Part shown: positions 18,721 to 48,033 of the stretch, in pieces
How positions within the stretch are numbered: position 1 is the first letter of the stretch
Layout of the letters: each line of letters opens with the position of its first letter
Origin: a virus
Length of the DNA stretch: 48,885 nt
Strand: one strand, 5' to 3'
UHGV virus genome: UHGV-0858861
Notes under the pieces: model-generated
Database searches by the model: none
Told to the model about the DNA's origin: nothing
What the model saw: only the letters and a program-made list of their open reading frames with translations
Made by a program: the position numbers and the translations under genes

Positions 18721-20511
18721 GTGAGTAAATTATTATTTACGATGACTGACGCCGGGCGTCAGGAGTTGGTTAATGCCAACAAAACAGGAACAAATAAAGT
18801 TGAGATTGTTTCTGTTGGTTTAGGTAGTAGATATTATGTCACGTCAACCTCACAAACAAATATAACAGACGAAATAAAACGACTTACCACAATAGGTGGC
18901 AAAGTTGTTTCCCCTGATACAATTCATGTAACGGCGAAGGATGATAGTAAAGATGAGTATGTTGTCCATACAATAGGATTGTATACAAATAAGGGAAGGT
19001 TGTTTGCTGTATACTCGCAAGAACAAGCAATAATAAATAAAGCATCATCTACTATTGCTTTAATATCAAGTGACATAGCAATTAAGACTCTTGATACTAA
19101 AAATATTACATTTGGTGATATTGAGTTTATTAATCCTCCCGCGACCGAAACTGTTGTTGGGGTTGCAAGATTTGCTAATGAACAAGAAATTGATGCAGGT
19201 ACAGATGATTCCCTTGCTGTTTCAGCAAAGCGGCTTAAGCAAGCCATTGTGAAACATGAGCAATCACGTAATCATCCTGATGCAACTTTAACCTCAAAAG
19301 GCTTTGTTCAACTTAGCAGCGCCACCAATAGCACGTCTGAAACGCTTGCTGCGACGCCTAAGGCTGTTAAGGCAGCATATGACCTGGCTAACGCTAAATA
19401 CACCGCACAGGACGCTACCACGGCGCGAAAAGGGATTGTTCAGCTTAGTAGCGCAACTAACAGCGATTCTGAGACGCTGGCAGCAACGCCAAAGGCGGTA
19501 AAGGCAGCATATGACCTTGCTAACGCTAAATACACCGCACAGGACGCTACCACAGCGCGAAAAGGGATTGTTCAGCTCAGTAGCGCCACCAACAGCACGT
19601 CTGAAACACTGGCCGCGACATCAAAAGCTGTAAAGGTGGTAATGGATGAAACGAACAAGAAAGCGCCCCTGAACAGTCCGGCGCTGAGCGGAACACCAAC
19701 AACACCAACGGCGACTAAGGGAACGAATAACACTCAGATCGCAAGCACAGCTTTCGTTATGGCTGCGATTGCTGAACTTGTAGATTCGTCACCTGATGCA
19801 CTGAACACGCTGAACGAACTGGCTGCGGCGCTGGGCAATGACCCGAATTTTGCGACCACCATGACTAACGCGCTTGCGGGTAAGCAACCGAAGGATGCCA
19901 CCCTGACGGCGCTGGCGGAGCTTGCTACATCAGCAGATAAACTCCCATATTTTACAGGGGCAGATCGTGCCGCGTTAACCGCGTTGACAAGTGTTGGACG
20001 TGCCATTCTTGGTAAAACCAGCACTCAGGGCGTTCTTGATTACCTTGGTTTGGGAGAAGGCTCTGCATTACCGGTTGGTGTGCCTGTTCCGTGGCCTTCA
20101 GCCACACCACCGACAGGCTGGCTGAAATGCAATGGTGCGGCTTTTTCTGCTGAACAATACCCGGAACTGGCAAAGGCTTATCCGACAAATAAATTGCCTG
20201 ATTTACGCGGCGAATTCATTCGTGGCTGGGATGACGGGCGCGGAATTGATACCGGACGTGAGATGCTTTCATATCAGGAAGGCACTATCGTATCCGGGTT
20301 TGATGATAATGATACCGGAGATATCAGTTCACTCAGCTCTACACAATACGGATTTGGTGACACTTTAACCTCTAATCAATGGGCGTCCATAAGTGGCAAA
20401 AGGTGGATATTTGATGCATCCAACAAAGGTGCACAAAAATATGACTGGTGGGCTTATGTTTCAGCTCGCCCGCGCAATATTGCATTTAATTACATCGTGA
20501 GGGCCGCCTGA
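18721..20511 (+). CDS. tail fibre protein (constant N-terminal part plus current C-terminal variable cassette)
   Basis: 596-aa ORF; three tandem ~40-aa repeats (...VQLSSATNS.SETLAATPKAVKAAYDLANAKYTAQDATTARKGI...); 3' end lies inside the invertible segment. Confidence 0.8.
   Translation: MSKLLFTMTDAGRQELVNANKTGTNKVEIVSVGLGSRYYVTSTSQTNITDEIKRLTTIGGKVVSPDTIHVTAKDDSKDEYVVHTIGLYTNKGRLFAVYSQEQAIINKASSTIALISSDIAIKTLDTKNITFGDIEFINPPATETVVGVARFANEQEIDAGTDDSLAVSAKRLKQAIVKHEQSRNHPDATLTSKGFVQLSSATNSTSETLAATPKAVKAAYDLANAKYTAQDATTARKGIVQLSSATNSDSETLAATPKAVKAAYDLANAKYTAQDATTARKGIVQLSSATNSTSETLAATSKAVKVVMDETNKKAPLNSPALSGTPTTPTATKGTNNTQIASTAFVMAAIAELVDSSPDALNTLNELAAALGNDPNFATTMTNALAGKQPKDATLTALAELATSADKLPYFTGADRAALTALTSVGRAILGKTSTQGVLDYLGLGEGSALPVGVPVPWPSATPPTGWLKCNGAAFSAEQYPELAKAYPTNKLPDLRGEFIRGWDDGRGIDTGREMLSYQEGTIVSGFDDNDTGDISSLSSTQYGFGDTLTSNQWASISGKRWIFDASNKGAQKYDWWAYVSARPRNIAFNYIVRAA
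19297..19630 (+). repeat. tandem ~120-bp repeats (about 2.7 copies) within the tail fibre gene
   Basis: Near-identical DNA and protein repeats visible at about 19300-19420, 19420-19540 and 19540-19630. Confidence 0.8.
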
Positions 20512-22740: not shown

Positions 22741-22782
22741 TATGATTGTGGGTGTCTGGTTGGAAACTGACCAGATATGGAA

Positions 22783-22900
22783 ACAAAAAGCCCGCAGATA
22801 AATCTGCGGGCTTCTTGCGACATCCACGGAAAACCAACAACAACAATCCATGGGCGCCTCGACAACTCCCATTATACGTTGGTTTTCCGTGGACGCAAGA
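22783..22900 (-). ncRNA. candidate CopA-like antisense RNA / structured repA leader
   Basis: Upstream of the probable repA start: hairpin AAGCCCGCAG-ATAAAT-CTGCGGGCTT (22791-22816), which on the minus strand would be followed by a T-run, and 15-bp inverted repeat CCACGGAAAACCAAC / GTTGGTTTTCCGTGG (22825-22839 / 22879-22893). Confidence 0.3.
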
Positions 22901-22908
22901 GCGAACAT

Positions 22909-23757
22909 ATGGATAGACCAATGCCGTCTCTACGTTCCGCTTACGTTTGTAATTTGTCGCCGGAGTTCCAGCCTCCAAAGCACCATACGCACAAGCTGCC
23001 GCTAGTGTTATCTGATGCTTTACAGCGCATTAATGGTCGTGATCTTACGTGTGAGGTTGCGTTCTACGTTAATCAGCCGTCAGAGCGGAAGCGCCGGATA
23101 AACGAGCATCGTCGTCGGGCGATTAATGCTGTGATTGCTGCGATTTTGCACCATGTAAACATCATTTCTAAGCGGGTTCTGGCCAGTGCTGAGGCGTTGG
23201 CTGATTTTTGCGGCCTGTCTACCGTATCCGAAGCTGGGAACAAGTCTATAACACGCTGTACAAGGGCGTTGTCGCAACTGAAAGCGTTAGGTTTTATTGA
23301 TTATGAACGTCGCTGGGATCGGGTGAATAAACAGTATTGGCCAGCGAAAATAGAGATTCGTGATCAACTGCTGGAAACCGTTGGTATTACTGAACAAGCA
23401 TGGAGACGTGCGGTTAGCCAGAAACTTAATTACTTCAATGCGAAGAATAGCGAACGGCTTAAAAAAGCGATAACGGAGGCTGATTATAAGCGTATTGTTA
23501 TTCAGGAGCAGATGGAGAATGTATGGCGTCAGAGGAAGACAGCCAGAGAGATAAAGGCAAAACAGAAAGCAGCGGAGAGAGCTGCGCGTCTTGTTCAGGA
23601 AAAGGGAGAGGCCGAACTTCGTCATCAAATCACTAGAGAGGTTAGCCAGGAATTTGCTGATGGCATGTATCCTGGTGCTGACCTTGCATATTTACGATCC
23701 CTCGTTGAGCAGCGTTATAACAGGTTAAGAAAGACCAGGAAATCACTCCAACATTAA
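22909..23757 (+). CDS. repA: plasmid replication initiator RepA (IncFII RepA1-like)
   Basis: ORF (track 22777-23757; probable start ATG 22909 after the structured leader) with RepA1-like central motif (KSITRCTRALSQLKALGFIDYE) and basic C-terminus. Confidence 0.6.
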   Translation: MDRPMPSLRSAYVCNLSPEFQPPKHHTHKLPLVLSDALQRINGRDLTCEVAFYVNQPSERKRRINEHRRRAINAVIAAILHHVNIISKRVLASAEALADFCGLSTVSEAGNKSITRCTRALSQLKALGFIDYERRWDRVNKQYWPAKIEIRDQLLETVGITEQAWRRAVSQKLNYFNAKNSERLKKAITEADYKRIVIQEQMENVWRQRKTAREIKAKQKAAERAARLVQEKGEAELRHQITREVSQEFADGMYPGADLAYLRSLVEQRYNRLRKTRKSLQH

Positions 23758-25908: not shown

Positions 25909-25913
25909 TGCTC

Positions 25914-26029
25914 ATAGAATTATATAATTATATATTTATATAAAAAGTGCTTTACGGGTGGGAAAAAATTTCCTAAGGTTATACCCGAAACCGAGCGATA
26001 CCCGCCCTGGTTAAACCGGAGATAACCCG
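25914..26029 (+). promoter_or_regulatory. conserved promoter + 5' leader module, copy 1
   Basis: AT-rich palindromic box (TATATAATTATATA), -35-like TTTACG, dyad GGAAA-AAA-TTTCC in spacer, -10-like TAAGGT, then a conserved 50-nt leader with GGAG SD running to the ATG at 26030; near-identical to copies at 35973 and 44044. Confidence 0.55.
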
Positions 26030-26410
26030 ATGAGCATGATTAAAATCCGCAAAAACGCTTTCCTTAAAATTCAAACTATCCTAGCTGGTTCTGTTGGCGT
26101 GATTTGCCGTTCTTCTTCAAGCCGCATCGATGACGGCTACGATGATGAGTACCGTGTGTCCTCGTGCGATGAGGCTTTAACCTGGCTGAAGGAGAATCAG
26201 GAACGTGCCCAGGTATATCTGGAAACAGAGAACGGCAATCAGATGCTGCGTATTAGCGGTCGTTATGGATTTGAAACTACATTCATGGCCTATTTTAATC
26301 AGGCTTACTTTGACAAGGAGCTGGCCTGGTACACTGATCGCATGAGCAAAAGCGAGCCAGCCCCGATTACACCGCCGAACAATAAACCATTTTTATTCCT
26401 CGTTAAGTAA
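26030..26410 (+). CDS. hypothetical protein, first gene behind module copy 1 (candidate anti-defence protein)
   Basis: 126-aa ORF with no recognisable motif; followed by an Aca2/DUF1870-like HTH gene. Confidence 0.4.
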   Translation: MSMIKIRKNAFLKIQTILAGSVGVICRSSSSRIDDGYDDEYRVSSCDEALTWLKENQERAQVYLETENGNQMLRISGRYGFETTFMAYFNQAYFDKELAWYTDRMSKSEPAPITPPNNKPFLFLVK

Positions 26411-27381: not shown

Positions 27382-28017
27382 ATGGGGATGCTGGTGGCGT
27401 TTATTATTAGCCTGATTTTGTGTTTCTTCGTAGTTCGTGGCGCATATCGGAAACAATGTGCCTCGTCTTCTGGTGGTAAGTTCAAAGCTGTTTTAGTGAG
27501 TGGCTTTCTCGGGATTGCTACTTTTGTAGTTGTTAATACTCTTGCGGCTGTGACCTTGATCCCAGAAGACCCCAACACTGCGGCTACTACCGGAGCAGCT
27601 TTTGATGGTGTGACCGTAGATAAGTTTAAGCAGTTATATAATGATGACCTTGAAGGTATCGCTACATCAGGAAAATCCACCTCCACTATAAGAATTAAGT
27701 CAGTTAAACAAGGTAACAACACCGTTGAATTTGCCATCAATTCATCTGTTAACGGTCGGGCTAGAGTTGATAAGGATGGGAAGATTTCAGAGTTATTATG
27801 GCGAGTATCTAAGCCTAGCTCTGATTCCTTGCTTTCTATGGCCGTAGCTGTTGAAGTCTTGGATGCATCAAGTGATAGAGACACAGTGATCGCGCAGTTA
27901 GAGCAGATTGTTAAATCTGATACGCAGAAAGCTGAGTTTAAGACTAAGAGAGGCGAGTATTACGTTTCTCGTGACAAATCAGGGCACGTGTCGCTACTGA
28001 TTACACCGAAATATTAA
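27382..28017 (+). CDS. membrane protein with two N-terminal TM helices and a soluble domain (candidate exclusion/abortive-infection-type function)
   Basis: 211-aa ORF; hydrophobic segments at about residues 3-20 and 35-57; good SD (AAGGAG) upstream. Confidence 0.45.
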   Translation: MGMLVAFIISLILCFFVVRGAYRKQCASSSGGKFKAVLVSGFLGIATFVVVNTLAAVTLIPEDPNTAATTGAAFDGVTVDKFKQLYNDDLEGIATSGKSTSTIRIKSVKQGNNTVEFAINSSVNGRARVDKDGKISELLWRVSKPSSDSLLSMAVAVEVLDASSDRDTVIAQLEQIVKSDTQKAEFKTKRGEYYVSRDKSGHVSLLITPKY

Positions 28018-28026
28018 GAATTGAAG

Positions 28027-28053
28027 AAGCGCCCAAATCGGGCGCTTTGTTTT
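28027..28053. terminator. bidirectional terminator between convergent genes
   Basis: Hairpin GCGCCC-AAATC-GGGCGC flanked by A-rich and T-rich runs. Confidence 0.55.
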
Positions 28054-29194
28054 ATGGTTTTGCACCTGCGGCCAGTTTATCCGCAGATATCTTTATCAGT
28101 TCCTGTAGTGTCCTGGCTGGTAGGTTTGCATCCAGAACGCTGAGTATGCTGTTGTGATCCGCCTGGTCGACTACTTTGCCTGTCGGTGGTAGTAGCTTGA
28201 GCTGAGGATTCAGGTCCTCGTCAAAGCTGATAAGTGCTCTGGCGTTCCTGAGCAGATCAAGAAGTAAGGCTGATATCACATTTTCCTGAGTCATTGCTGG
28301 CAGATTTAGCGCCGCTTTGGTTTTCCCTGTTGCCTTGTCAAACTCCTTGATTAGTTCCTTCCTGTAGTTCGGTTCCGTTAATAGCCGATTATGCTCTGTT
28401 GCCGCGCGGATAATCGTTTTTTCCTGGTACAGTCGTTTAGCCAGATCTCGCTCGTACTGTGTTTTTAACACGCTGCTGATAGCGTTAAAGGCTTCAATGT
28501 AGGCCAGCTTGATATCCTTCACGCCTGGACCGTCGATACTTTCCATGAGCAAGGTAAATCCGTCTTTTGTCATGCGATATATTGTTATTTCGCGGTCGCT
28601 TCCTTCCAGCGGTCGTTGTTCTTTAAAGAAGTGACGCGCCGCAGCCGTGCGAGGAATGCGTAACGCATCGATGGCCATAACGATGGAATTGTTTGTGGTG
28701 CTGAATGCCTGAGCAACATCGGCTGAGGTTGTGAGTGGCTCGTTGTTGCACACCTTAATGTAAAACATCGGTTTGGCGTTGAGCGTATCGACAACCTCAC
28801 GAGCATTGTTTGGCGAGACGGTAACGGTCGCGGCCGTTTGCGCGTTCTGGTTGAAATAGCAGTCTTCCAGCCGTTCGAACACATCCCACGCTTGGTTAGT
28901 TTCAAGCATTTTGGCGTGACGTGCAGCCCCGCGTTCTGTCCAGAGAATTAGGGAGCGGGCATTTTTACCAACTAACCCGATTGTTTCGGGTCTGTTCTTG
29001 AACTCGCGTAATTCGTTTTTTTCAATTTTAAAGTAATGCTTTCCGGCTACGAATCGCGTCGTGTTGTTCAGAAAGTTATCAGAAATGTTTTTGATTTTTG
29101 TTCCGTATAACTGCGCCAGAAGTTCACTAGTGATAACGGGGATCTGGTTATGCAGGATAGGCTGTAGGGTGTTAACGGTCGGAAGCGTTTTCAT
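28052..29194 (-). CDS. antirepressor-like regulatory protein (ORF6N-like N-terminus + Rha-like domain)
   Basis: 380-aa ORF; architecture of phage antirepressor/Rha regulators; coupled to a small upstream ORF. Confidence 0.6.
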   Translation of the reverse strand: MKTLPTVNTLQPILHNQIPVITSELLAQLYGTKIKNISDNFLNNTTRFVAGKHYFKIEKNELREFKNRPETIGLVGKNARSLILWTERGAARHAKMLETNQAWDVFERLEDCYFNQNAQTAATVTVSPNNAREVVDTLNAKPMFYIKVCNNEPLTTSADVAQAFSTTNNSIVMAIDALRIPRTAAARHFFKEQRPLEGSDREITIYRMTKDGFTLLMESIDGPGVKDIKLAYIEAFNAISSVLKTQYERDLAKRLYQEKTIIRAATEHNRLLTEPNYRKELIKEFDKATGKTKAALNLPAMTQENVISALLLDLLRNARALISFDEDLNPQLKLLPPTGKVVDQADHNSILSVLDANLPARTLQELIKISADKLAAGAKP

Positions 29195-29382: not shown

Positions 29383-29439
29383 TGTGATGATTCCCTTAAA
29401 GGTTAAGGATACTCACCACCGTCAGGTTCCAATCATTGG

Positions 29440-29570
29440 GTGGTGAGACGTGCAGGGTTGGAACTACCGGACACAATGACGAACCGGCGAGTCTTACGAC
29501 TCCCCCGCACGCCCCACCATAATTTGGGGGTAGCAGTGCTTTACGCATAAAAAAACCGCTAACGCGGTAT
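29440..29570 (-). ncRNA. candidate c4-like antisense RNA region of an immI-like locus
   Basis: Minus-strand leader carries two hairpin-loop copies of GAUUGGAACC (29424-29433 and 29590-29599) flanking a segment with the complementary GGUAGUUCCAACC (29455-29470), plus a minus-strand terminator hairpin near 29550-29570. Confidence 0.3.
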
Positions 29571-29680
29571 GCGCCATTGTGTCTACGGGGTTCCAATCCC
29601 GGCCGTAGATTTTGCTACGGCTCGGAAAGTGTCCACCAATGGCGCATTCATGTCAATACGGCGGGATTTTAACAGACTAA

Positions 29681-30418: not shown

Positions 30419-30744
30419 CGTGCTGATCGGATTCGCGGTCCTTTCAGCATAACGTCGTTGTACTAATACAACCACGCAAGCACAAACAGCAACTACATTC
30501 TTACCCAACTGAGGTGAATAGTCCACTATTCATATAAAAAAATTTAGCTCATTAGCTCATGCAAAATGAAGGTTTTTAACTTATTTACGTGTAATCTTAT
30601 GTAATAAAAGCGTTTTTTATTCCTTCATTATGAAGGGTATGACGTGTAATATGGCTTGGGGCCTTTCCGCCGATTCGCACCCGGGCACTGACTTTCAGGA
30701 AAGGATTATCCACTTGCCGTACCACGCAGGCACAAACAGCGTGC

Positions 30745-30927
30745 TTGCTCTCGCGTCATTTTCGTCGGTGGGGATGCCGTGAAACGGCCTGTAAGGGCCA
30801 CACAATGAAAAAATACTACATGTGTATTTTTATCGTTGTTACTGGAGCTTTGTTTACGCCACATGGGGAGGGTTGGAAGATTACTGATAACGCTCTGAAT
30901 GTGACGATAAACATTAGCAGCAAGTAG
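30745..30927 (+). CDS. small hydrophobic peptide (about 40 aa from the ATG at 30805)
   Basis: MKKYYMCIFIVVTGALFT... with one predicted TM helix, SD AAGGG upstream, strong terminator immediately downstream. Confidence 0.3.
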   Translation: MLSRHFRRWGCRETACKGHTMKKYYMCIFIVVTGALFTPHGEGWKITDNALNVTINISSK

Positions 30928-30932
30928 CGATT

Positions 30933-30956
30933 AGGCCCCTTCGGGGGCCTTTTTTA
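30933..30956 (+). terminator. strong rho-independent terminator
   Basis: Hairpin AGGCCCC-TTCG-GGGGCCT followed by TTTTTT. Confidence 0.7.
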
Positions 30957-30965
30957 TGGTTGAAT

Positions 30966-31148
30966 TTAAACGCTGGAGCGCATTAAGCCTTTCAGAACTG
31001 CTTCACGTACCCATTCTGGCCTGGTGGATAGCAGGGCAAATAAGCAGCCAGCTTGTAGCCGTTTGAGGTCGGTTAGACGAGTTTTCAGTAACCGTGTATA
31101 TTGTTGCTCGGACATAACAAATTCCCCTTGTTGTGTCGCGACGGCCAA
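30966..31148 (-). CDS. hypothetical small protein downstream of parG
   Basis: 60-aa ORF on the same strand as the partition genes. Confidence 0.3.
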   Translation of the reverse strand: MAVATQQGEFVMSEQQYTRLLKTRLTDLKRLQAGCLFALLSTRPEWVREAVLKGLMRSSV

Positions 31149-31177: not shown

Positions 31178-31426
31178 TTACTTCTGGTTGTATTGAGCCT
31201 TGAGTAACTCAAAAGATTTTGTCAGCACTTCTTTCAATGACATATCCATTGAGCTGGCGAACGTTTTGTACTCGCGTTTAAATTCAGGGTCGACGTTAAA
31301 CGCCATTTGTGCCCCACCTGATTTGGTTCTGGTTGGCGTTTCAGTCGGGTCGAAAACCTGCGGTTGTTCGATCGATGGCGGTACGCCTTTGCTGTTCTTC
31401 TTTGGTGGTTTTGATGGTGCGGCCAT
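31178..31426 (-). CDS. parG: ParG-like partition protein (ribbon-helix-helix)
   Basis: 82-aa ORF directly downstream of the ParA-type ATPase; C-terminus resembles the ParG RHH region; unstructured basic N-terminus. Confidence 0.5.
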   Translation of the reverse strand: MAAPSKPPKKNSKGVPPSIEQPQVFDPTETPTRTKSGGAQMAFNVDPEFKREYKTFASSMDMSLKEVLTKSFELLKAQYNQK

Positions 31427-31469
31427 GTGTATCCCCTCTTATATAAATCTATAAAACTATAATTATATA

Positions 31470-32138
31470 TTACGCGGCAGTAGTCAGAGCCTCAAGCTGG
31501 TTGATAATCCCCTGAATAACGTCGTCTGCCTTTTTGCGTGGCGCAACGTATGAGCACTCAATGAGGCTTAAGCCCTTATCCTGAGCTTTGCTCAGAGCTG
31601 GCTTGTGGGGAATGTACTTATCAACAACAAAGTATGGCGTATTAGCCAGGTACTCTTGGGCTTCAATATAGTCAGCTTCGTTTTCAGCCGCGCCGGAAAA
31701 CACCATGCAAATTTTCTTGATTGGTACACCCTTTTTAACGATGCCGTGAGCAGTGTTAACGGTGGTTTCTAGGTCATCGGTAGAGAATCTGGTTGGCAAA
31801 ATAACCATATCCAGAAATTCAGAGAGCTTCGGTACTGATTCAGATGCGTAGGCACCGCCATCGACGATAACCAGGTCGTATACTTCTGATTCGATGATTT
31901 TCTGGACTTGTGATGGTGTGCCGCACGGCTGCGCCGCGATTGCTGGTTCGATATTGTTGGCCATTCTGCGTTGTACCCAACGCGTTACCGTTCCGTTAAG
32001 CACATCCATATCGATCAGGCATACATTCCAGCCAGCCTTTGCATAAGCAACTGCTAAAGCACGGGCAATTGTTGATTTGGTTACGCCGCCTTTTCCGTTG
32101 AAAATACCTACAGAGATAGTCATTTGTCGAGACTCCAT
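31470..32138 (-). CDS. parA: ParA/ParF-type partition ATPase
   Basis: 222-aa ORF with deviant Walker A (GKGGVTKST). Confidence 0.8.
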   Translation of the reverse strand: MESRQMTISVGIFNGKGGVTKSTIARALAVAYAKAGWNVCLIDMDVLNGTVTRWVQRRMANNIEPAIAAQPCGTPSQVQKIIESEVYDLVIVDGGAYASESVPKLSEFLDMVILPTRFSTDDLETTVNTAHGIVKKGVPIKKICMVFSGAAENEADYIEAQEYLANTPYFVVDKYIPHKPALSKAQDKGLSLIECSYVAPRKKADDVIQGIINQLEALTTAA

Positions 32139-32270
32139 GTGTTTGGTTATATAATTCTATAAATCTATATTTATAGAACGAGGTAAGCATAACCAACTTT
32201 TTGGCGGATGAAAAGCGTTTTATATAATTATATAAATCTATAATCATATAAGCGGGCGTTAGCCCGCTTG
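32139..32270. promoter_or_regulatory. AT-rich palindromic iterons upstream of parF (candidate centromere/operator)
   Basis: Repeated TATAAATCTATA and TATATAATTATATA motifs at 32157-32185 and 32225-32250; related boxes at 31436-31468 and upstream of the conserved promoter modules. Confidence 0.45.
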
Positions 32271-32273
32271 CAG

Positions 32274-32648
32274 TCAGAGGTCAGCTATCGTTGATATCAG
32301 TTGATTTGCTAGCTGTCGCTGTTTACGTGAGAGGGTTAGAGCAGCTTCTGAGCGGTCGCTAAGAGGGGTGTTTTCATCAAGAATCATGAGGCATACAGAA
32401 ATAATAGCCCTGTTATATGCCATCAATGGCTGGCACAGCTTCGATACCGCTGGCACATCGTATTGTAAGGCCGTTTTGAGGCAGACTTTTTGTTCTGATG
32501 CCAGATGAAGGATAGATTCTATCCAGTCGATATCTTTCTCATTATCAATGATTTGGCATAACATACACTCAATCGCTATGTTCAACGCTTGGATTTCGAT
32601 TCCAGCAGTGATCAGAGTTTCGTTTTTATTGGCTGTATGTAATTCCAT
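32274..32648 (-). CDS. hypothetical protein downstream of the repressor gene
   Basis: 124-aa ORF; an operator-like dyad (32684-32698) lies about 40 bp upstream of its start. Confidence 0.4.
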   Translation of the reverse strand: MELHTANKNETLITAGIEIQALNIAIECMLCQIIDNEKDIDWIESILHLASEQKVCLKTALQYDVPAVSKLCQPLMAYNRAIISVCLMILDENTPLSDRSEAALTLSRKQRQLANQLISTIADL

Positions 32649-32683
32649 GCGTAGCCTCTTTTATACTTTCACATGTTGTCAAA

Positions 32684-32698
32684 ACCACAAAGCGTGGT
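32684..32698. promoter_or_regulatory. repressor-type operator-like dyad (or hairpin) between cI-like gene and the 124-aa gene
   Basis: AACCAC-AAAGC-GTGGTT followed by a T-run on the plus strand. Confidence 0.4.
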
Positions 32699-32740
32699 TT
32701 TTTTGAGCGTAGAAATGCACGGCTTTCGCCGTGCTGTGTA

Positions 32741-33397
32741 TCATAACCAGTTGACAACACTAACTACGCGGCCAAGAACTTTATAACGCTTAAATTCCTC
32801 GTTATTCAGATGCTTAGTGTTCATTTCAGCATCCCTTTCGGTTGACAGCATAACAGCATTGTCACCCGGTATGACTCTACAGTGCCTCAAAACAACCAGG
32901 CCATTTCTGTCTTCAAGGGCATAGATCCCCTCATGAATCTCTGTATCGTCTGTATCAATCAGGACTTGGGAGCCAGGGGATATTGTTGGTGACATTAACT
33001 CATCGTTGCTCTGGAGAACTGACAGAGACGATGGGTTGATGTTCTTGCTTCGTAGAATCTCCTGTTCTATCGCCAGCACTGGCTTTTCTCCGGCGTGCGA
33101 TGCTATGTCATTTTTTATAGCTACAAGCCCAGGAATAACAGGAGCGTTAGTATTCTGGGGTGGGAACGGGTTATCTGTTAAGCACGCGATATAAGGCGCT
33201 GATGCTTTCAGGGCGTGCGCGATTTTCTTGATGGCAGGTATAGATGGTTGTCTTAATCCGGCCTCATAGTTCTGCAAGGTGCTTAAGCCTATTCCAGTGA
33301 CTTGCTGGAGATCTCCGGCAGTCATGCCGGATTGTTTCCGTAGAGTCTGAATGCGCAGACCTATTTCTTTCTTGATGTTCTCGTCGTTGCTTTTCAT
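32741..33397 (-). CDS. CI-like repressor (N-terminal XRE HTH + C-terminal S24/LexA-like peptidase domain)
   Basis: 218-aa ORF; HTH (MTAGDLQQVTGIGLSTLQNYEAG) and C-terminal segment resembling the S24 autocleavage domain; divergent from a Cro-like gene. Confidence 0.7.
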   Translation of the reverse strand: MKSNDENIKKEIGLRIQTLRKQSGMTAGDLQQVTGIGLSTLQNYEAGLRQPSIPAIKKIAHALKASAPYIACLTDNPFPPQNTNAPVIPGLVAIKNDIASHAGEKPVLAIEQEILRSKNINPSSLSVLQSNDELMSPTISPGSQVLIDTDDTEIHEGIYALEDRNGLVVLRHCRVIPGDNAVMLSTERDAEMNTKHLNNEEFKRYKVLGRVVSVVNWL

Positions 33398-33433
33398 GTC
33401 TCATCAATCGTGAATGGTGGGTTATTTATACAT

Positions 33434-33552
33434 TACCACATTTAGTGGTTTTCACATGGTAAGACGAGAGGTGGACCACAAATAGAAGGTTATTTTTTGT
33501 TTCGCCCATTGAAAAACTCACGATGTGTGGTTTTAATACCACATATCGTGGT
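33434..33552. promoter_or_regulatory. operator cluster in the cI/cro-like divergent promoter region
   Basis: Dyads ACCAC-ATTTA-GTGGT (33434-33448), degenerate CTCAC-GATGT-GTGGT (33517-33531) and ACCAC-ATATC-GTGGT (33538-33552). Confidence 0.6.
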
Positions 33553-33571
33553 TTTAATTGGAGTTCGTTAA

Positions 33572-35972: not shown

Positions 35973-36091
35973 AAATCTATAAATATATAATTATAGATTT
36001 ATATAAAAAGTGCTTTACAGGTGGGAAAAAATTTCCTAAGGTTATACCCGAAACCGAGCGATACCCGCCCTGGTTAAACCGGAGAAATCTG
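35973..36091 (+). promoter_or_regulatory. conserved promoter + 5' leader module, copy 2
   Basis: Near-identical to 25914-26029 and 44044-44162 from the AT-rich box through TTTACA, GGAAAAAATTTCC and the leader to the SD; ATG at 36092. Confidence 0.55.
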
Positions 36092-37159
36092 ATGAATAAA
36101 CAAGTAATTATTTCTGACTGGATCAACAACCCTAACAGCCTGTTAAGCACTGATACTGGCTACCTATTACGCCATGTTAATGGTCGTATGGTCAAAAGCG
36201 ATGAGCACGAAACCTTTTTCTTTGTTGAAGATGATGGGCGTATCTATGAGGATGGTTACTCTTATGAAGCCCAAACTGGTTGTATCCCTGCGGAGCTGGT
36301 GGACGTAACAGAAGATCTGCGCAAAGCATGGCTTGAACAGCAGCAGCGCGGAGATGATTACGTAAACACCTATCAGGAACGCCAGAACGCGCGTCTTGCC
36401 CGATATATTGCTCGTGCAGAAAAAGCCAGAAAAGAAGGTGCGGTAGCGCATAAGCGAGCGCATGACCTGTTGGATGTGATCCCGTTAGGCCAGCCGATTT
36501 TAGTTGACCATTATAGCGCGAAAGGCCATCGCCGCCGTTTGTCTAAAGCTGATGCGTTATTAAGAAAAGCGTTTGTTGAATGCGAAAGTAAAGCATCACA
36601 CTACGAGAGCAAAGCCGCAGGTGTTGGTCGTAATGGAATTTCGTCTGATGATCCTGATGCGCTATTTAAGTTGCTTCGTAAGCTGCAAGGCTGCATGAAG
36701 TCACACGTCAAAATGAAGGCCGCAAATAAGGCCATTCGCAAATACAAAAAAGACCAATTACAGCAGCTTTCTGCATTAATCGATCTCAGGTTTACAGAAA
36801 GCGAAGCCAAAGAGTTACTGGTCGGAGATTTCTGTGGGCGCATCGGATTCCCTTCATACGTACTGAGCAACAATAACGCCGAGATCAAACGACTACAGAG
36901 CCGTATTAAGGAGCTTGAATCGGTCAAGTCTGTAACAGGAGCACAGCGCGAAGAATACGACGACTTTTCTATGGAGATAGATCCAGAGGATAACCGCATC
37001 CTGTTTTATTTCCCTGGCAAACCAGAGGCAAACATTCGTTCGCTGCTTAAATCACGCGCCTTTAAGTGGAGTCCAACCCGTAATGCATGGGTTCGCAAGA
37101 TTACTCCAAATGCCCTGGCTGATGCCCGATATCTGAAAGAATCGCTATTGAAAGCCTGA
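36092..37159 (+). CDS. hypothetical protein with DUF3560-like C-terminus (candidate early/anti-defence protein)
   Basis: 355-aa ORF directly behind module copy 2; C-terminal motif ILFYFPGKPEANIRSLLKSRAFKWSPTRNAWVRK. Confidence 0.4.
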   Translation: MNKQVIISDWINNPNSLLSTDTGYLLRHVNGRMVKSDEHETFFFVEDDGRIYEDGYSYEAQTGCIPAELVDVTEDLRKAWLEQQQRGDDYVNTYQERQNARLARYIARAEKARKEGAVAHKRAHDLLDVIPLGQPILVDHYSAKGHRRRLSKADALLRKAFVECESKASHYESKAAGVGRNGISSDDPDALFKLLRKLQGCMKSHVKMKAANKAIRKYKKDQLQQLSALIDLRFTESEAKELLVGDFCGRIGFPSYVLSNNNAEIKRLQSRIKELESVKSVTGAQREEYDDFSMEIDPEDNRILFYFPGKPEANIRSLLKSRAFKWSPTRNAWVRKITPNALADARYLKESLLKA

Positions 37160-37215
37160 CAGTAAGCCTACGGCGGGATGTCTCCCGCCGTATATAGAAT
37201 TATATATTTATATAA

Positions 37216-37518
37216 ATGTATAAGGACGCCTCGACAATGAAACGCAAAATTATTAACCCCCAAGATGTGATTAATTTCCTGACCGATCACCCATGTTCAA
37301 AAGTGGACGTAATCGCGGAGCACATTGGTGTGTCGCAGAACTCTATGCGTTGCAGACTGAGAAGCATGGTTGCCGAAGGACAGATAACAACCAGGAAAAT
37401 AAATGGTTGCCTGTACTACTCCGCTAAACCGGAATTGCCATTTGGCATGAATTCTAACTCCATGTTGTTTAACACCTTATTAGCCAAAGTTAAGCCGTTG
37501 AGAGGGGCTGTGGCATGA
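37216..37518 (+). CDS. winged-helix DNA-binding protein
   Basis: ORF (probable start 37236) with wHTH-like segment (VDVIAEHIGVSQNSMRCRLRSMVAEGQI); AT-rich box upstream at 37190-37215. Confidence 0.4.
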   Translation: MYKDASTMKRKIINPQDVINFLTDHPCSKVDVIAEHIGVSQNSMRCRLRSMVAEGQITTRKINGCLYYSAKPELPFGMNSNSMLFNTLLAKVKPLRGAVA

Positions 37519-42785: not shown

Positions 42786-42909
42786 TACCGCCTGTGATTG
42801 GGTAAAGCCCATCTACCTGACTGATCACGATATCGATGTTATGGACCGCCAGACAAAGAAAGATATTCTGGCTCATAACAGGGCATGGGAAATCAACTGC
42901 CTCAAGTAA
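42700..42909 (+). CDS. o-spanin lipoprotein (Rz1-like), partly embedded in the Rz-like frame
   Basis: 69-aa ORF in alternate frame with lipobox-like LIASC. Confidence 0.45.
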   Translation: MYSRVLTIWLMTMLIASCGSRGSVPVVVDTACDWVKPIYLTDHDIDVMDRQTKKDILAHNRAWEINCLK

Positions 42910-43078
42910 TATATATTTCTATAATTATATAAATATATAGTTACAACATTCTATGCGCTTTTCTCATGAGCGCACGCATCAACCATGTTTGTCTGATATG
43001 CCGCCGCGCCCAAAAATCCTGAATTTATTGGCTGGGATTTTCGTGCGCGGCGCCACACCAGACAAACAGATCAAATAT

Positions 43079-43154
43079 GGCCCCTTAGCTCAGTGGTTAG
43101 AGCAGGCGACTCATAATCGCACGGTCATCGGTTCAAATCCGGTAGGGGCCACCA
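43079..43154 (+). tRNA. tRNA with CAU anticodon (elongator-type; ileX-like tRNA-Ile2 or tRNA-Met)
   Basis: 76-nt cloverleaf folded by hand: 7-bp acceptor stem (GGCCCCT/AGGGGCC), D-arm GCTCAGTGGTTAGAGC, anticodon loop CTCATAA, T-loop TTCAAAT, discriminator A and encoded CCA; 1:72 G-C pair excludes initiator type. Confidence 0.85.
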
Positions 43155-43462
43155 ATTCACTCTCACACATAAAGATAAGCGCGGTGGAGTTACTTCCTTC
43201 GTGCTCATCTTTATGCGTGCCTGGTGCGCATTTCGGGCGAACGTGGGGCTAAGTTACAGGCAGGGCCTGTTATCCGCAAAGGGGTAAAAGCTGGAGCGGC
43301 GCGGAACTGTAGCCGTGTTACCAAAACAGCGTTGTCGGGCGATATCCGGCACACAACAGGCAAGGGCATTAATCAGTCTGGTTAGTGCCCTTTTCGTTGT
43401 GTTTGCTGTAGGGCTGGCCAGCGTTATGACTGCCGGAGATAAGCGCCGGAGGCACAACTAAC

Positions 43463-44050
43463 ATGGAGGCAATTGCATTGTTTAATCTGATTTATGCAGA
43501 TCCCCCCTGGGAATACAAAGACAAGTGTAAGGATGGGAATCGTGGCGCTGGTTTTAAGTATCCAACGATGAAAGCTGAGGAGATTGCTCGTATTCCTGTC
43601 TGGCAGCTTGCTAATCCTGAATCGTGTTTGTTGGCCATGTGGTGGGTTCCGACTCAGCCAGAAGAAGCGTTGCTGGTGGTGAAAGCATGGGGATTCAGGC
43701 TGATGACCATGAAGGGCTTCACATGGAACAAATGTGGTAGCCGACAACCAGATAAGCTGGTGATGGGGATGGGGCATATGACTCGTGCAAACAGTGAAGA
43801 TTGCTTGTTTGCAGTGAAAGGCAAACTACCGACACGTCTTGATGCGGGGATCATTCAGTCGTTTACATCGCCTCGTCTGGAGCATTCTCGGAAGCCTGAT
43901 GTGGTCCGTGACAAGCTGGTAAGGCTGTTAGGTGATGTTCCTCGTATTGAGCTGTTTGCTCGCGGTGATTTACCTGATGGCTGGCATGGCTGGGGCAACC
44001 AGTGCAATGGAGGTATCCAATTGCATGATGCTCTCTGGCAAGTGTCATAG
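43463..44050 (+). CDS. MT-A70-family DNA N6-adenine methyltransferase
   Basis: 195-aa ORF with the catalytic DPPW motif (IYADPPWEY). Confidence 0.75.
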   Translation: MEAIALFNLIYADPPWEYKDKCKDGNRGAGFKYPTMKAEEIARIPVWQLANPESCLLAMWWVPTQPEEALLVVKAWGFRLMTMKGFTWNKCGSRQPDKLVMGMGHMTRANSEDCLFAVKGKLPTRLDAGIIQSFTSPRLEHSRKPDVVRDKLVRLLGDVPRIELFARGDLPDGWHGWGNQCNGGIQLHDALWQVS

Positions 44051-44162
44051 AATTATATAATTATATATTTATATAAAAAGTGCTTTACAGGTGGGAAAAA
44101 ATTTCCTAAGGTTATACCCGGAACCGAGCGATACCCGCCCTGGTTAAACCGGAGATAACCCG
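44044..44162 (+). promoter_or_regulatory. conserved promoter + 5' leader module, copy 3
   Basis: Near-identical to copies 1 and 2 (one substitution in the leader); ATG at 44163. Confidence 0.55.
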
Positions 44163-44432
44163 ATGAAAGTACAAGACCGTGAAGTAGTAAAAAACCTCCT
44201 GCAATACCTGACCTCAAAAAATCTGACTGGCAGCGTTGAGTTCCGTGAAGCGTTAAAACATTTCAACGTCACTACGGTTTATCGTTGGGAAAACAAACAT
44301 TCTGAAAGACCGTATGTGGTGGATGTTTTTGCGCCTGATATTGAGTGCGGTTTTGAGCGCCATTCATTCAAAAAGAAACATTCCGCTGATGTTTTTTGTG
44401 AGGTTGTATGTGCGGCAGGAGATGATGAGTGA
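44163..44432 (+). CDS. hypothetical protein, first gene behind module copy 3
   Basis: 89-aa ORF, no recognisable motif. Confidence 0.35.
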   Translation: MKVQDREVVKNLLQYLTSKNLTGSVEFREALKHFNVTTVYRWENKHSERPYVVDVFAPDIECGFERHSFKKKHSADVFCEVVCAAGDDE

Positions 44433-46036: not shown

Positions 46037-46660
46037 ATGACAAAACATCTTAATGTGGTTTCTTTACCACTTTCTGTGTTGATTGGTTATGAAAAGAACG
46101 CTCGCACACACTCCGTGGAGCAGGTAGATCAGATTGTTGCCAGCATACAGGAGTACGGATGGACTAATCCGATCCTGATAGACGAGAACAACGTTGTAAT
46201 TGCTGGTCATGGTCGAATTGCTGCGGCCACTCAGTTGGGGATGGATGACGTTCCCTGCATTGTTCTGGAAGGGCTAACGGAGAATCAGAAGAAGGCATAT
46301 CGTCTGGCCGACAACCGTATTCCGCTGAATGCTGGTTGGGATGAAGAGTTGTTAAGCGCGGAGCTTGCAGATCTTGCGGCCGATGATTTTGCTCTGGACT
46401 CAATTGGTTTTACTCAGCGCGAACTGGATAACTTATTGAGTGCGGCGGTCTACGATGACACAGAGGGTATGGATATCCCATTTGAGAAGGATGAGGCCAA
46501 ATCAGGCGTAAAAGTTCAGTACCTGTCATTTGGAGGTCATAAAATCCCGGCAACGGATGAGGAAGCGGATCGTTTTGACTGCGCGGTGTCTCGTTATGTT
46601 GATGATAATGGCAGCTATATCGGATTTGTATCCGCATTGCTGGCTGGGGAGGTGTGCTGA
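46037..46660 (+). CDS. ParB-like nuclease-domain protein (paralogue of 301-891)
   Basis: 207-aa ORF sharing the ParB N-terminal-like core (NPILIDENNVVIAGHGRIAAA...QKKAYRLADN...NAGWD) with the ORF at 301. Confidence 0.65.
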   Translation: MTKHLNVVSLPLSVLIGYEKNARTHSVEQVDQIVASIQEYGWTNPILIDENNVVIAGHGRIAAATQLGMDDVPCIVLEGLTENQKKAYRLADNRIPLNAGWDEELLSAELADLAADDFALDSIGFTQRELDNLLSAAVYDDTEGMDIPFEKDEAKSGVKVQYLSFGGHKIPATDEEADRFDCAVSRYVDDNGSYIGFVSALLAGEVC

Positions 46661-48033
46661 TGCTTCACCTCAATTACGACATAACGCACCTACGCGGCGC
46701 GGAATATAACCCGCGTTTTATCGGTGAGGATGATCTTGCGAGGCTGGCAGAAAGCGTCAGGGAGCTGGGGCTTGTGAAGCCATTGATAGTGCGCGGCGAT
46801 TTGCTGGTGGCGGGACACCAAAGGACGAAGGCGCTACGTAAGTTGGGAATAACGCGTGCTGCGGTGTATGTGTTGCCCTGTGAAACGACGGTATACGACG
46901 AAGTACGGTTTAACCAACTGCATAACGGAACGGATTTTGATAGCGGAGATGAGCGTTGCAGGGTGTCCGGTCTGGAAGATAAGCATGGTTTTGTTCAGGT
47001 ATCGGCAAGCCAGATTTCAGGCAATATGCGCGCGAAAATGGCATATGTTCGAAAGAACATAGCGGAACTGGTTATCAAGTATGGTCCGTGGGGTGGTTGT
47101 GTTGCTACGCAGTCTGGCGAGGTTATTCACTGTGCTCAGTATGCATTAGCAGCGAAGATGACGCGCACACCGCTAACGGTGTTTGTGATCCCTGATGTTG
47201 AGAAGGAAAAATACCAAAGTTATCTGAATAAAACTTATGGTGTATTTGAGTATTCTCATCTGGAGAAAACAACATACATCCAGACGTATGCGCAGCTTAT
47301 GCGGTTGCGTAATGGTGGCAGCCTGAAATCAAACCTGTATGAGTCGTTGATCCTCCCGATCATTGCCAAGACGCCAAGAGGAATTGATTTTGGTTCGGGG
47401 CAGGGAGACTACGCGCGAATGCTCAGGGCAAAGGGATATAACCTGCATGATCTCGAGCTTTTCCGCCGTAAGGGCGCTGGAAACACTCTGGATAGGACCG
47501 CAACAAACCGGATGATTGATACGCTGGTGGACGACTTAAAAACGCGAGGGCGTTACGACTACGTGATTTGCGATAGCGTTTTGAACTCGGTCGATAGTGT
47601 CGAGGCTGAATGGTCTGTTCTGACGGTTCTGAAAGGCCTGTGTAAAGCTGGTGGGTCAATATTCTTTTCTGGTCGTAGCCGTGGAGAGCTGGAAACAGTC
47701 CTGAAGCAAACACAAGCGGCGAGTTCCAAAAGCCGGCTTTATTTTATTGATCATAACGGTTTTACCGCGTTGTACCGGAAGGGGCACTGGTTTTACCAGA
47801 AGTTTCACTCTGATGATGAAGTGAAGCAGTTGTGTCGTGTACATGGTTTCAGGATTAAGCGGTCAATATTCAACTGTAAGAGCTGGTATTTGCACGTCAT
47901 TAACGATGATTCCCTTAGTTGGGCGAGTCTGGAGAAAGCTGTTCGTTTTGAGTTTGAGTTGCCGTTGCCTGGTGGTTCAACAATCGGACGATCTGATGAT
48001 GTGCTGGCGGCTTTCCGGCCGTTGATTAAGTAG
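46654..48033 (+). CDS. fusion protein: ParB N-terminal-like domain + class I SAM-dependent methyltransferase domain
   Basis: 459-aa ORF; N-terminal ParB-like segment (PLIVRGDLLVAGHQRTKALRKLG) and C-terminal Rossmann SAM motif (GIDFGSGQGDY); no DPPY/NPPY-type motif seen. Confidence 0.6.
   Translation: MLMLHLNYDITHLRGAEYNPRFIGEDDLARLAESVRELGLVKPLIVRGDLLVAGHQRTKALRKLGITRAAVYVLPCETTVYDEVRFNQLHNGTDFDSGDERCRVSGLEDKHGFVQVSASQISGNMRAKMAYVRKNIAELVIKYGPWGGCVATQSGEVIHCAQYALAAKMTRTPLTVFVIPDVEKEKYQSYLNKTYGVFEYSHLEKTTYIQTYAQLMRLRNGGSLKSNLYESLILPIIAKTPRGIDFGSGQGDYARMLRAKGYNLHDLELFRRKGAGNTLDRTATNRMIDTLVDDLKTRGRYDYVICDSVLNSVDSVEAEWSVLTVLKGLCKAGGSIFFSGRSRGELETVLKQTQAASSKSRLYFIDHNGFTALYRKGHWFYQKFHSDDEVKQLCRVHGFRIKRSIFNCKSWYLHVINDDSLSWASLEKAVRFEFELPLPGGSTIGRSDDVLAAFRPLIK

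Follow-up and report, generated by a model that had tools for sequence, protein, structure and literature searches.

What reads the AT-rich palindromes that flank the partition (par) promoter of the virus genome UHGV-0858861, and what do the same palindromes do at their other positions? The genome, a stretch of 48,885 nucleotides referred to here as the window, is a complete or near-complete 48.9-kb E. coli phage-plasmid. Such elements are common among clinical E. coli, and little is known of how they match the upkeep of the plasmid state with the expression of phage and accessory genes. Its par locus comprises a parF-like gene and a second gene, called parG here, for a small ParG-like protein. 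A preliminary description had placed palindromes upstream of parF, within 32139–32270, and between parF and parG, and had noted their return upstream of three conserved promoter modules and at 37190 and 42907; as explanations it put forward either global regulation by a dimeric binder, ParG-like or otherwise, or multiple centromere-like sites. The reading preferred here, with a probability of about 0.7, is that ParG dimers coat arrays of these repeats, repress parFG, and couple accessory cassettes to ParG and/or employ the dispersed arrays as extra centromeres.

Eight arrays of four units

The motif scan that the preliminary description had recommended was run on the window, and both of the palindromes it quoted were over-represented. 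TATAAATCTATA was matched 44 times with no more than two mismatches, against 5.8 expected and a maximum of 12 in 100 shuffles, and TATATAATTATATA 27 times with no more than three mismatches, against 3.3 expected; nearly all of these matches fell into eight clusters. The array unit was defined as a palindrome-like 8-mer with the consensus WTMTAKAW (TTATATAA, TTCTATAA, TTATAGAA and similar), with at most one mismatch tolerated in each. Three or more units followed one another in register at exactly eight places in the window, and every such run comprised exactly four units, i.e., 32 bp; among 100 first-order Markov simulations, there were no runs of three or more. Tandem Repeats Finder reported a period of 8 at seven of the eight sites and a period of 10 at 37201–37222. 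AT stretches in the window (at least 24 nt, at least 92% A+T) were all arrays with one exception, at 3074–3097. All eight arrays were intergenic and beside gene starts; three were situated at par and five were dispersed, the whole set being spread across 18 kb. Unit order varied between sites, while the unit type was the same. The array scan of the window identified none near repA (22777–23757), in its origin region, or upstream of the RelE/ParE operon. RepA iterons were rejected as a source of the repeats, given that the origin region after repA contains a DnaA box and AT-rich repeats of its own, and no array.

At par, the palindromes were found where the preliminary description had put them. 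The operon is read on the minus strand and the order towards parF is the terminator hairpin of the preceding gene (32250–32269), an array, the -35 box, 17 nt, the -10 box, a second array, GGAG and the ATG. The parF-distal array (32220–32251; TTATATAA TTATATAA ATCTATAA TCATATAA) lies at approximately -42 to -75 from the predicted parF start site, and the parF-proximal array (32147–32178; TTATATAA TTCTATAA ATCTATAT TTATAGAA) at approximately +1 to +34 of the predicted transcript, ending 24 nt before the parF ATG. With starts 73 bp apart, the two bracket the core promoter (32186–32214, minus strand), a sigma-70-like sequence read by eye and consisting of -35 TTTTCA (32214–32209) and -10 TATGCT (32191–32186) with a 17-nt spacer. 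parF itself (31470–32123, minus strand) encodes a small Walker ParA of 217 amino acids (aa). A third array of four units (31439–31470) occupies the gap between the parF stop codon and the Shine-Dalgarno sequence of parG, where it abuts the ribosome-binding site of that gene (GAGGGGATACACATG); parG (31178–31426, minus strand) encodes 82 aa. Directly downstream, an open reading frame (ORF) of about 49 aa (30966–31115, minus strand) is kept in most related lineages with 33–94% pairwise identity. Its annotation is present in some records and lacking from others, and the par operon may include it as a third gene.

Three of the dispersed arrays (25912–25943, 35975–36006 and 44045–44076) precede near-identical sequences of 85 nt on the plus strand, designated type I modules. 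Module 1 (25944–26029; -35 TTTACG at 25951–25956, -10 TAAGGT at 25974–25979) stands before a 126-aa ORF (26030–26410), module 2 (36007–36091; -35 at 36014–36019, -10 at 36037–36042) before a DUF3560 gene (36092–37159), and module 3 (44077–44162; -35 at 44084–44089, -10 at 44107–44112) before an 89-aa ORF (44163–44432). In each case the array ends 7 nt before the -35 box (TTTACR), followed by a 17-nt spacer with an inverted repeat (GGAAAaaaTTTCC), -10 TAAGGT, a conserved leader and an invariant AAACCGGAGA Shine-Dalgarno region, such that the distance from array to ATG is 86–87 nt in all three; the arrays of modules 1 and 3 are identical. A second regulator could have its operator in the inverted repeat of the spacer, which takes the form TAGGA-N7-TCCTA in Serratia. 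There is a small hairpin in the leader, and comparison of the E. coli/Salmonella copies with those of Serratia shows AU-to-GC compensatory changes in it, three of its ten predicted pairs being changed on both sides in at least one copy.

A second kind of setting, designated type II, is seen at 37192–37223, where the array follows a hairpin (GGCGGGATGTCTCCCGCC) and abuts AAGGACGCCTCGACAATG, comprising the ribosome-binding site and start of a 93-aa MarR-like gene (37237–37518); the linker has the form (A)AGGAnnCCTCGACAA(A)TG, i.e., ribosome-binding site plus start codon. parF itself has a type II setting, with the related linker GGAGTCTCGACAAATG. Type II arrays end 13–24 nt before the ATG, and the fixed distances of both types therefore argue for a role in expression. 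The type II linker was common to parF/parA and to unrelated cargo genes in many of the lineages examined (e.g., 32123–32138 and 37224–37239 in the window; 27985–28002 and 29055–29071 in the related locus L003), and in Salmonella a copy stood at either end of an inserted DGQHR gene, as though cassettes were exchanged by recombination through this linker.

The remaining array (42909–42940) immediately follows a stop codon, and 139 nt separate it from a downstream tRNA-Met(CAT) gene (43079–43154, plus strand), which lies in about 680 bp that carry no annotation in RefSeq relatives; an ORF overlapping the tRNA (42953–43252) is probably not a gene. Hence, each of the recurrences in the preliminary description corresponded to an array, beginning at 25912, 35975, 37192, 42909 and 44045. 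Its description of these as five other promoters was borne out for the three modules, which have recognisable -35/-10 boxes, but not for the arrays at 37192 and 42909; such boxes were recognised downstream of only four arrays, the fourth being the parF-distal one. A consensus promoter scan of the window did not call the parF or module promoters, and near the arrays it returned only plus-strand TATAAT matches inside the arrays themselves. The promoters proposed here were predicted from -35/-10 positions and spacing conserved across lineages, the pair being at the same place relative to the arrays in the related lineages inspected.

The cargo behind the dispersed arrays of the window comprises DUF3560, the MarR-like protein, small orphan ORFs and a tRNA; in relatives it includes the DGQHR protein (Salmonella) and Lar restriction-alleviation proteins (two other lineages). 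Because the cargo differs between relatives, and because the linker was duplicated at the inserted gene in Salmonella, the arrays were taken to belong to expression cassettes that are portable. When the array-linked genes were searched against Pfam and PHROG, the matches were to Lar, DUF3560 and the MarR-like protein, and the remainder were left without function.

Sequence resembling an array was also found outside this family. The array at 35974–36006 had 91% matches in the virB9-virB10 spacer of conjugative E. coli plasmids of about 24 kb, in two places per plasmid (e.g., L007, 3001–3033, NZ_CP101228.1, and some 17 similar plasmids), seemingly unrelated to any par gene; this could be a chance AT-rich similarity or a related binding array.

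A ribbon-helix-helix protein that tracks the array unit

The 217-aa ParA matched the Pfam CbiA/ParA/MipZ family and has no N-terminal DNA-binding domain; its matches to TP228 ParF (4dzz) and to ParA 5u1g were weak (E approximately 3e-4). For the 82-aa protein there was no Pfam match, and phmmer returned nothing significant from the PDB. A word-based homologue search recovered close relatives only, whereas an exhaustive representative search recovered a wider family of proteins of approximately 80 residues, with an N-terminal tail (MA..KPPKK..KG.PP) and a C-terminal block (LNFKV..EF.RE.K.FA...D.SM.ELL...FELYK). Pfam RHH_10 was matched by 19 of 54 family members, while Pfam ParG (PF09274) was touched by a single homologue of the 54 (E = 0.018); the family profile did not significantly match TP228 ParG (1p94; E = 0.83). 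Membership of the ParG sequence family was rejected on these grounds.

The fold of the protein is nonetheless ribbon-helix-helix (RHH). Using the 54-sequence alignment, AlphaFold2 predicted a disordered basic tail at residues 1–40 and, with a predicted local distance difference test score (pLDDT) above 90 for residues 41–80, an RHH domain with a strand at approximately 41–46 and helices at 47–59 and 64–80. The top Foldseek matches of this model were RHH proteins (StnY, CdbA, CopG, CopA(SO), AmrZ and Arc, with TP228 ParG 1p94 at rank 10), and the target-normalised template modelling score was 0.7–0.87 for most of them, with E-values that were not significant for a domain of this small size. Since the sequence searches were null, the 82-aa protein is described as ParG-like by its fold, gene position, tail and site architecture, and not as a demonstrable family member. 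A small Walker ParA, an adjacent small RHH protein and repeats at the par promoter together make the pair a type Ib partition module. A dispersed centromere for a ParB of the helix-turn-helix (HTH) type, as in phage-plasmid N15, was rejected because the neighbour of ParA is this RHH protein.

Relatives were gathered through ParG homologues and a ParA profile scan of IMG/VR, which gave approximately 20 loci with 42–56% ParA identity, many of them partial contigs, in addition to close relatives. The layout of terminator, array, -35/-10, array, ribosome-binding site and parA was kept in the approximately 20 relatives inspected, and many carry type I and type II modules elsewhere; spacing between units was 8, 16 or 24 bp throughout. 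The unit itself differed between groups. It was TTMTAKAA in group A (the window and Salmonella), GATATAAATATATC in group B (L021, L022 and L024–L026), AATCTTTA or TTCTTTAA in group C (Serratia pJSRIV006_2, L008, L009, L010, L023 and L027), TTAACGAA in group D (L028, L031 and L032) and GCACGAAA in group E (L029, L030 and L033), while L004 had TATATAAATACATA. Given that groups D and E use units containing G-C pairs, the arrays are not a product of AT-richness as such.

With the exception of one short contig, the 11-mers found upstream of par in each locus recurred in clusters elsewhere in the same locus. Cross-comparison of these 11-mers produced a matrix that was block-diagonal by motif group, only groups A and B cross-matching through a shared TATATAAATATATA. 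In the Serratia plasmid, which is complete and whose structural genes are lambda-like instead of those of a myovirus, 36 matches to the variant motif were counted against 4.5 expected, and these formed six arrays arranged as in the window. Therefore, the dispersed arrays co-vary with the par-proximal arrays; in every lineage examined on a long-enough contig, the dispersed arrays carried the par-proximal unit. Arrays had turned over between E. coli and Salmonella, with the motif being retained.

Three proteins encoded within 10 kb of par were common to all lineages, namely ParA, ParG and a 125-aa protein; the cI-like repressor, a 164-aa protein in the Cro position, a 77-aa protein and the 49-aa ORF were common to most. 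For each it was asked if the nearest neighbour of a given protein belonged to the same motif group. This was so without exception for ParG (18/18) and for cI (18/18), but not for the other five backbone proteins: ParA (15/19), the 125-aa protein (15/18), the 164-aa protein (13/15), the 77-aa protein (13/14) and the 49-aa protein (12/17). Between groups D and E, for instance, ParA was 76–78% identical, yet both the units and ParG differed. The residue of the ParG beta-strand before the conserved Phe also corresponded with the unit, being A or S with CTATA, T with ACATA, N with CTTTA, and L..R with GATATA, although exceptions exist.

What binds the arrays

These associations make ParG the best-supported binder, and lend support to the earlier proposal of a ParG-like dimeric binder serving as a global regulator or of multiple centromere-like sites. 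The case is that an RHH protein with a disordered basic N-terminal tail is encoded after parF, that the dispersed arrays carry the par-proximal unit of their own lineage, that motif type follows the ParG phylogeny in 18 of 18 cases when five other backbone proteins show exceptions, and that the 8-bp period of the arrays is that of the TP228 ParG operators. ParG of the E. coli plasmid TP228 binds 4-bp boxes separated by 4-bp AT-rich spacers, one dimer per box, at sites upstream of parFG where direct and inverted orientations are tolerated; four boxes keep approximately half of centromere activity (PMC3130281). TP228 thus shares with the window a small ParA, an RHH ParG with a flexible N-terminal tail and an 8-bp period upstream of parF, but it has 20 ACTC boxes in one contiguous block, with no dispersed sites described, where the window has the AT-only palindrome TTATATAA in eight arrays of four units.

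The preliminary description had cited KorB and P1 C1 as analogues. Omega of pSM19035 is a closer analogue than either and the closest of all, with TP228 ParG closest in site geometry, N15 SopB in biology, and KorB and StbA more distant. KorB of the IncP plasmid RK2 is a partition protein and global regulator with multiple operator sites at promoters around the replicon. StbA of R388 is presented in a preprint as a segregation protein with multiple operator sites at promoters (bioRxiv 10.1101/2022.04.29.490116). Both differ from the window protein in being HTH proteins with another site architecture, and in belonging to conjugative plasmids rather than phages.

Omega is an RHH protein that binds contiguous 7-bp repeats upstream of three different promoters, which function as both operators and centromeres (PMC9499535, PMC3074150), and it needs at least four contiguous repeats to activate ParA (PMC9499535), a number that every array in the window would supply. 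The resemblance extends to a small RHH protein with an unstructured N-terminal tail, encoded beside a small ParA, and to arrays upstream of several separate promoters, the two proteins being compared by fold. However, omega recognises 7-bp WATCACW repeats in arrays of 7–10, whereas the window has 8-bp units in arrays of four. Omega controls copS copy number, partition and a toxin-antitoxin on a plasmid of S. pyogenes; the putative targets here are standardised accessory cassettes and a tRNA, in a phage-plasmid of Gram-negative hosts, and the system is conserved across a broad superfamily of phages in which unit and ParG match in no fewer than five specificities.

Phage-plasmid N15 has four dispersed SopB centromere sites that are not clustered (PMC7205306). 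It therefore resembles the window as a phage-plasmid with binding sites for its partition protein scattered through the genome, but its system is of type Ia, with a large, spreading HTH ParB and single 16-bp palindromes, and has neither an RHH protein nor tandem arrays of short units. The N15 Sop system is also said to affect late gene expression, according to the title of a 2008 article by Ravin, Rech and Lane that is cited in PMC11652158. A literature search, of incomplete coverage, returned no paper on this phage family or on an RHH partition regulon in phage-plasmids.

If ParG is the binder, one dimer would occupy each 8-bp unit and four dimers would cover each array cooperatively. At parF, occupation of the arrays at approximately -42 to -75 and +1 to +34 would shut the promoter, resulting in autorepression, and would also create the primary partition complex, with the disordered basic tail of ParG engaging the ParF ATPase. 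Elsewhere the same complex would assemble in three settings: at -40 to -75 of three near-identical promoters, against a ribosome-binding site, and upstream of a tRNA. An array in the UP-element position of a type I module would most simply block contacts of the RNA polymerase alpha-subunit, as upstream omega arrays repress, while the type II array would be bound in or just before the 5' leader. Accessory cassettes would be tied to the level of ParG in this manner, most likely by repression, with homeostatic expression in the plasmid state and a transient burst of derepression on entry into a naive cell. The eight arrays may also jointly form a multi-site centromere, comparable to the four dispersed SopB sites of N15. 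We infer, then, that ParG is the binder with this stoichiometry, that it represses rather than activates, and that the dispersed arrays have centromere activity.

Several observations weigh against this reading. The identity of the binder was assigned by association in sequence data, and cI tracked the motif groups as well as ParG did; moreover, the number of independent evolutionary events among the motif groups is small. The correlation between strand residue and unit is imperfect, since L010 has KNFKV with TTCTTTAA, and groups D and E both have N-F-K with different units. The 82-aa protein does not significantly match Pfam ParG or 1p94. An array upstream of the -35 box could activate instead of repress, and the similarity of arrays within the genome may partly reflect cassette duplication or gene conversion, as the identical arrays of modules 1 and 3 could indicate. 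Finally, the regulon differs from that of omega because there is no array at repA or at the toxin-antitoxin operon.

Three alternatives were considered. It is unlikely that the arrays are read by a different protein of the element, whether the cI-like repressor, the little-conserved ORF that separates cI from parF, or some small protein that has escaped recognition, such that the par operon is one member of a regulon and the true ParG centromere is a subset of the arrays or lies elsewhere. The congruence of cI with the motif groups is as good as that of ParG, and there are several conserved backbone proteins without assigned function among which such a binder might be found. However, cI is tightly linked to par, and its own control region has a different repeat and no array (none was found in the cI/cro intergenic region of the window by the array scan), for which reasons it was disfavoured. 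Alignments of the ORF between cI and parF are poor, and its length ranges from 72 to 130 aa. The 125-, 164-, 77- and 49-aa proteins break the motif grouping and have no recognisable DNA-binding domain, and the MarR-like protein behind the array at 37192 was rejected because it is absent from a Serratia relative with the same system. Near parFG there is no other repeat fit to be a centromere, and short tandem units at a fixed period are themselves the signature of RHH centromere binders.

Slightly more doubtful is the suggestion that there is no dedicated binder, and that the arrays are UP elements, AU-rich translational enhancers or nucleation sites for H-NS, Fis or IHF, made similar through cassette duplication or gene conversion. 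Four arrays do occupy the UP-element position, ending in AAAAAG just before the -35 box, and three lie immediately 5' of a Shine-Dalgarno sequence; the cassettes are evidently mobile, with cargo that differs between relatives and a linker that is duplicated in Salmonella, and the arrays of modules 1 and 3 are the same. Yet UP elements have neither a strict 8-bp period, which does not keep phase with the DNA helix, nor a fixed number of four units, and the same array type occurs in both transcribed and non-transcribed positions. As a generic explanation, the UP element or AT enhancer was rejected because four arrays are not at approximately -40 to -60, being instead downstream of the -10 box, by a Shine-Dalgarno sequence or after a stop codon. 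The possibility, raised in the preliminary description, that the boxes are merely AT-rich UP-element DNA is further weakened by relatives that use units other than AT (TTAACGAA and GCACGAAA) in the same layout. Variation in unit order between sites while unit type is kept, and turnover between E. coli and Salmonella with the motif retained, also stand against it, as does the fact that host nucleoid proteins are conserved from E. coli to Serratia, yet the unit differs. Least probable of the three is that ParG binds all of the arrays but that the dispersed ones have no regulatory role, being extra centromeres, as in N15, or neutral remnants of cassette linkers. The four dispersed sites of N15 provide a precedent (PMC7205306), four units are the minimum that activates ParA in the omega system, and the arrays at 37192 and 42909 have no adjacent recognisable promoter. 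Against this, the dispersed arrays recur across lineages at a few fixed distances from a -35 box or Shine-Dalgarno sequence, and neutral remnants would not keep four intact units.

A wider proposal may be built upon the binding of ParG to the arrays, although we hold it tentatively and at a little short of even odds. In this, ParG would be the master regulator of plug-and-play cassettes that are silenced in the plasmid state and released in a burst on infection of a naive cell; the arrays would constitute a multi-site centromere; and ParG specificity and the arrays would co-evolve across a large, uncharacterised superfamily of enterobacterial phages and phage-plasmids. The portable unit would join a ParG array to one of two standard parts, a promoter with its leader or a ribosome-binding site, and the interchangeable cargo would include Lar restriction alleviation, the DGQHR protein, DUF3560, small orphan genes and the tRNA. 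If true, this would link plasmid inheritance to the expression of cargo, possibly anti-defence cargo, and would explain a conserved motif that is found genome-wide; the idea of an anti-defence burst is speculative because the cargo searches were mostly uninformative. With its eight 32-bp sites, a single 82-aa protein and natural variants in which each of five unit types has its matching ParG, the family would offer a system for studying DNA recognition by RHH proteins and the co-evolution of their specificity with many sites simultaneously. The standardised cassettes could serve as engineering parts.

Other features of the element

The par/immunity region of the window is 99% identical to that of Yersinia phages vB_YpM_39, 41 and 44, and the window matches approximately 60 near-identical, non-mobilizable plasmids of 47–52 kb in PLSDB, from E. 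coli, E. albertii, E. fergusonii, Klebsiella and Salmonella; one of these is a plasmid of E. coli ATCC 25922. In the annotation of a RefSeq relative there are structural genes of a myovirus, genes for terminase and lysis, an IncFII-type RepA, a RelE/ParE toxin-antitoxin, a cI-like repressor and ParA. On the minus strand, the gene order is the cI-like repressor (32741–33397), a 124-aa ORF (32274–32648), the 217-aa ParA and the 82-aa ORF. Inverted repeats of the type ACCACA..TGTGGT, unlike the AT arrays, were seen in the cI/cro intergenic region (33398–33571) and at the end of the cI transcript (32680–32710); these are presumably cI operators.

Beyond the par operon, Rfam identified a C4 antisense RNA and an adjoining isrK-like RNA (29436–29621, minus strand) just upstream of an ORF6N/KilA-N antirepressor-like gene (28052–29194, minus strand), an arrangement resembling the antirepressor control region of the P1 immI type. 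Between the antirepressor region of the window and the par operon, ryfA RNA is matched over its full length (30657–30955, plus strand; 134.6 bits), and a small ORF (30745–30927) overlaps this match. Within the tail-fibre gene (18721–20511), there is a tandem repeat of 132 bp (19296–19636; 2.6 copies, 84% matches). Three genes with a ParB/Srx N-terminal domain (301–891, 46037–46660 and 46654–48033) are situated beside terminase, far from ParA and ParG; the Serratia relative, whose structural genes are lambda-like, lacks all three.

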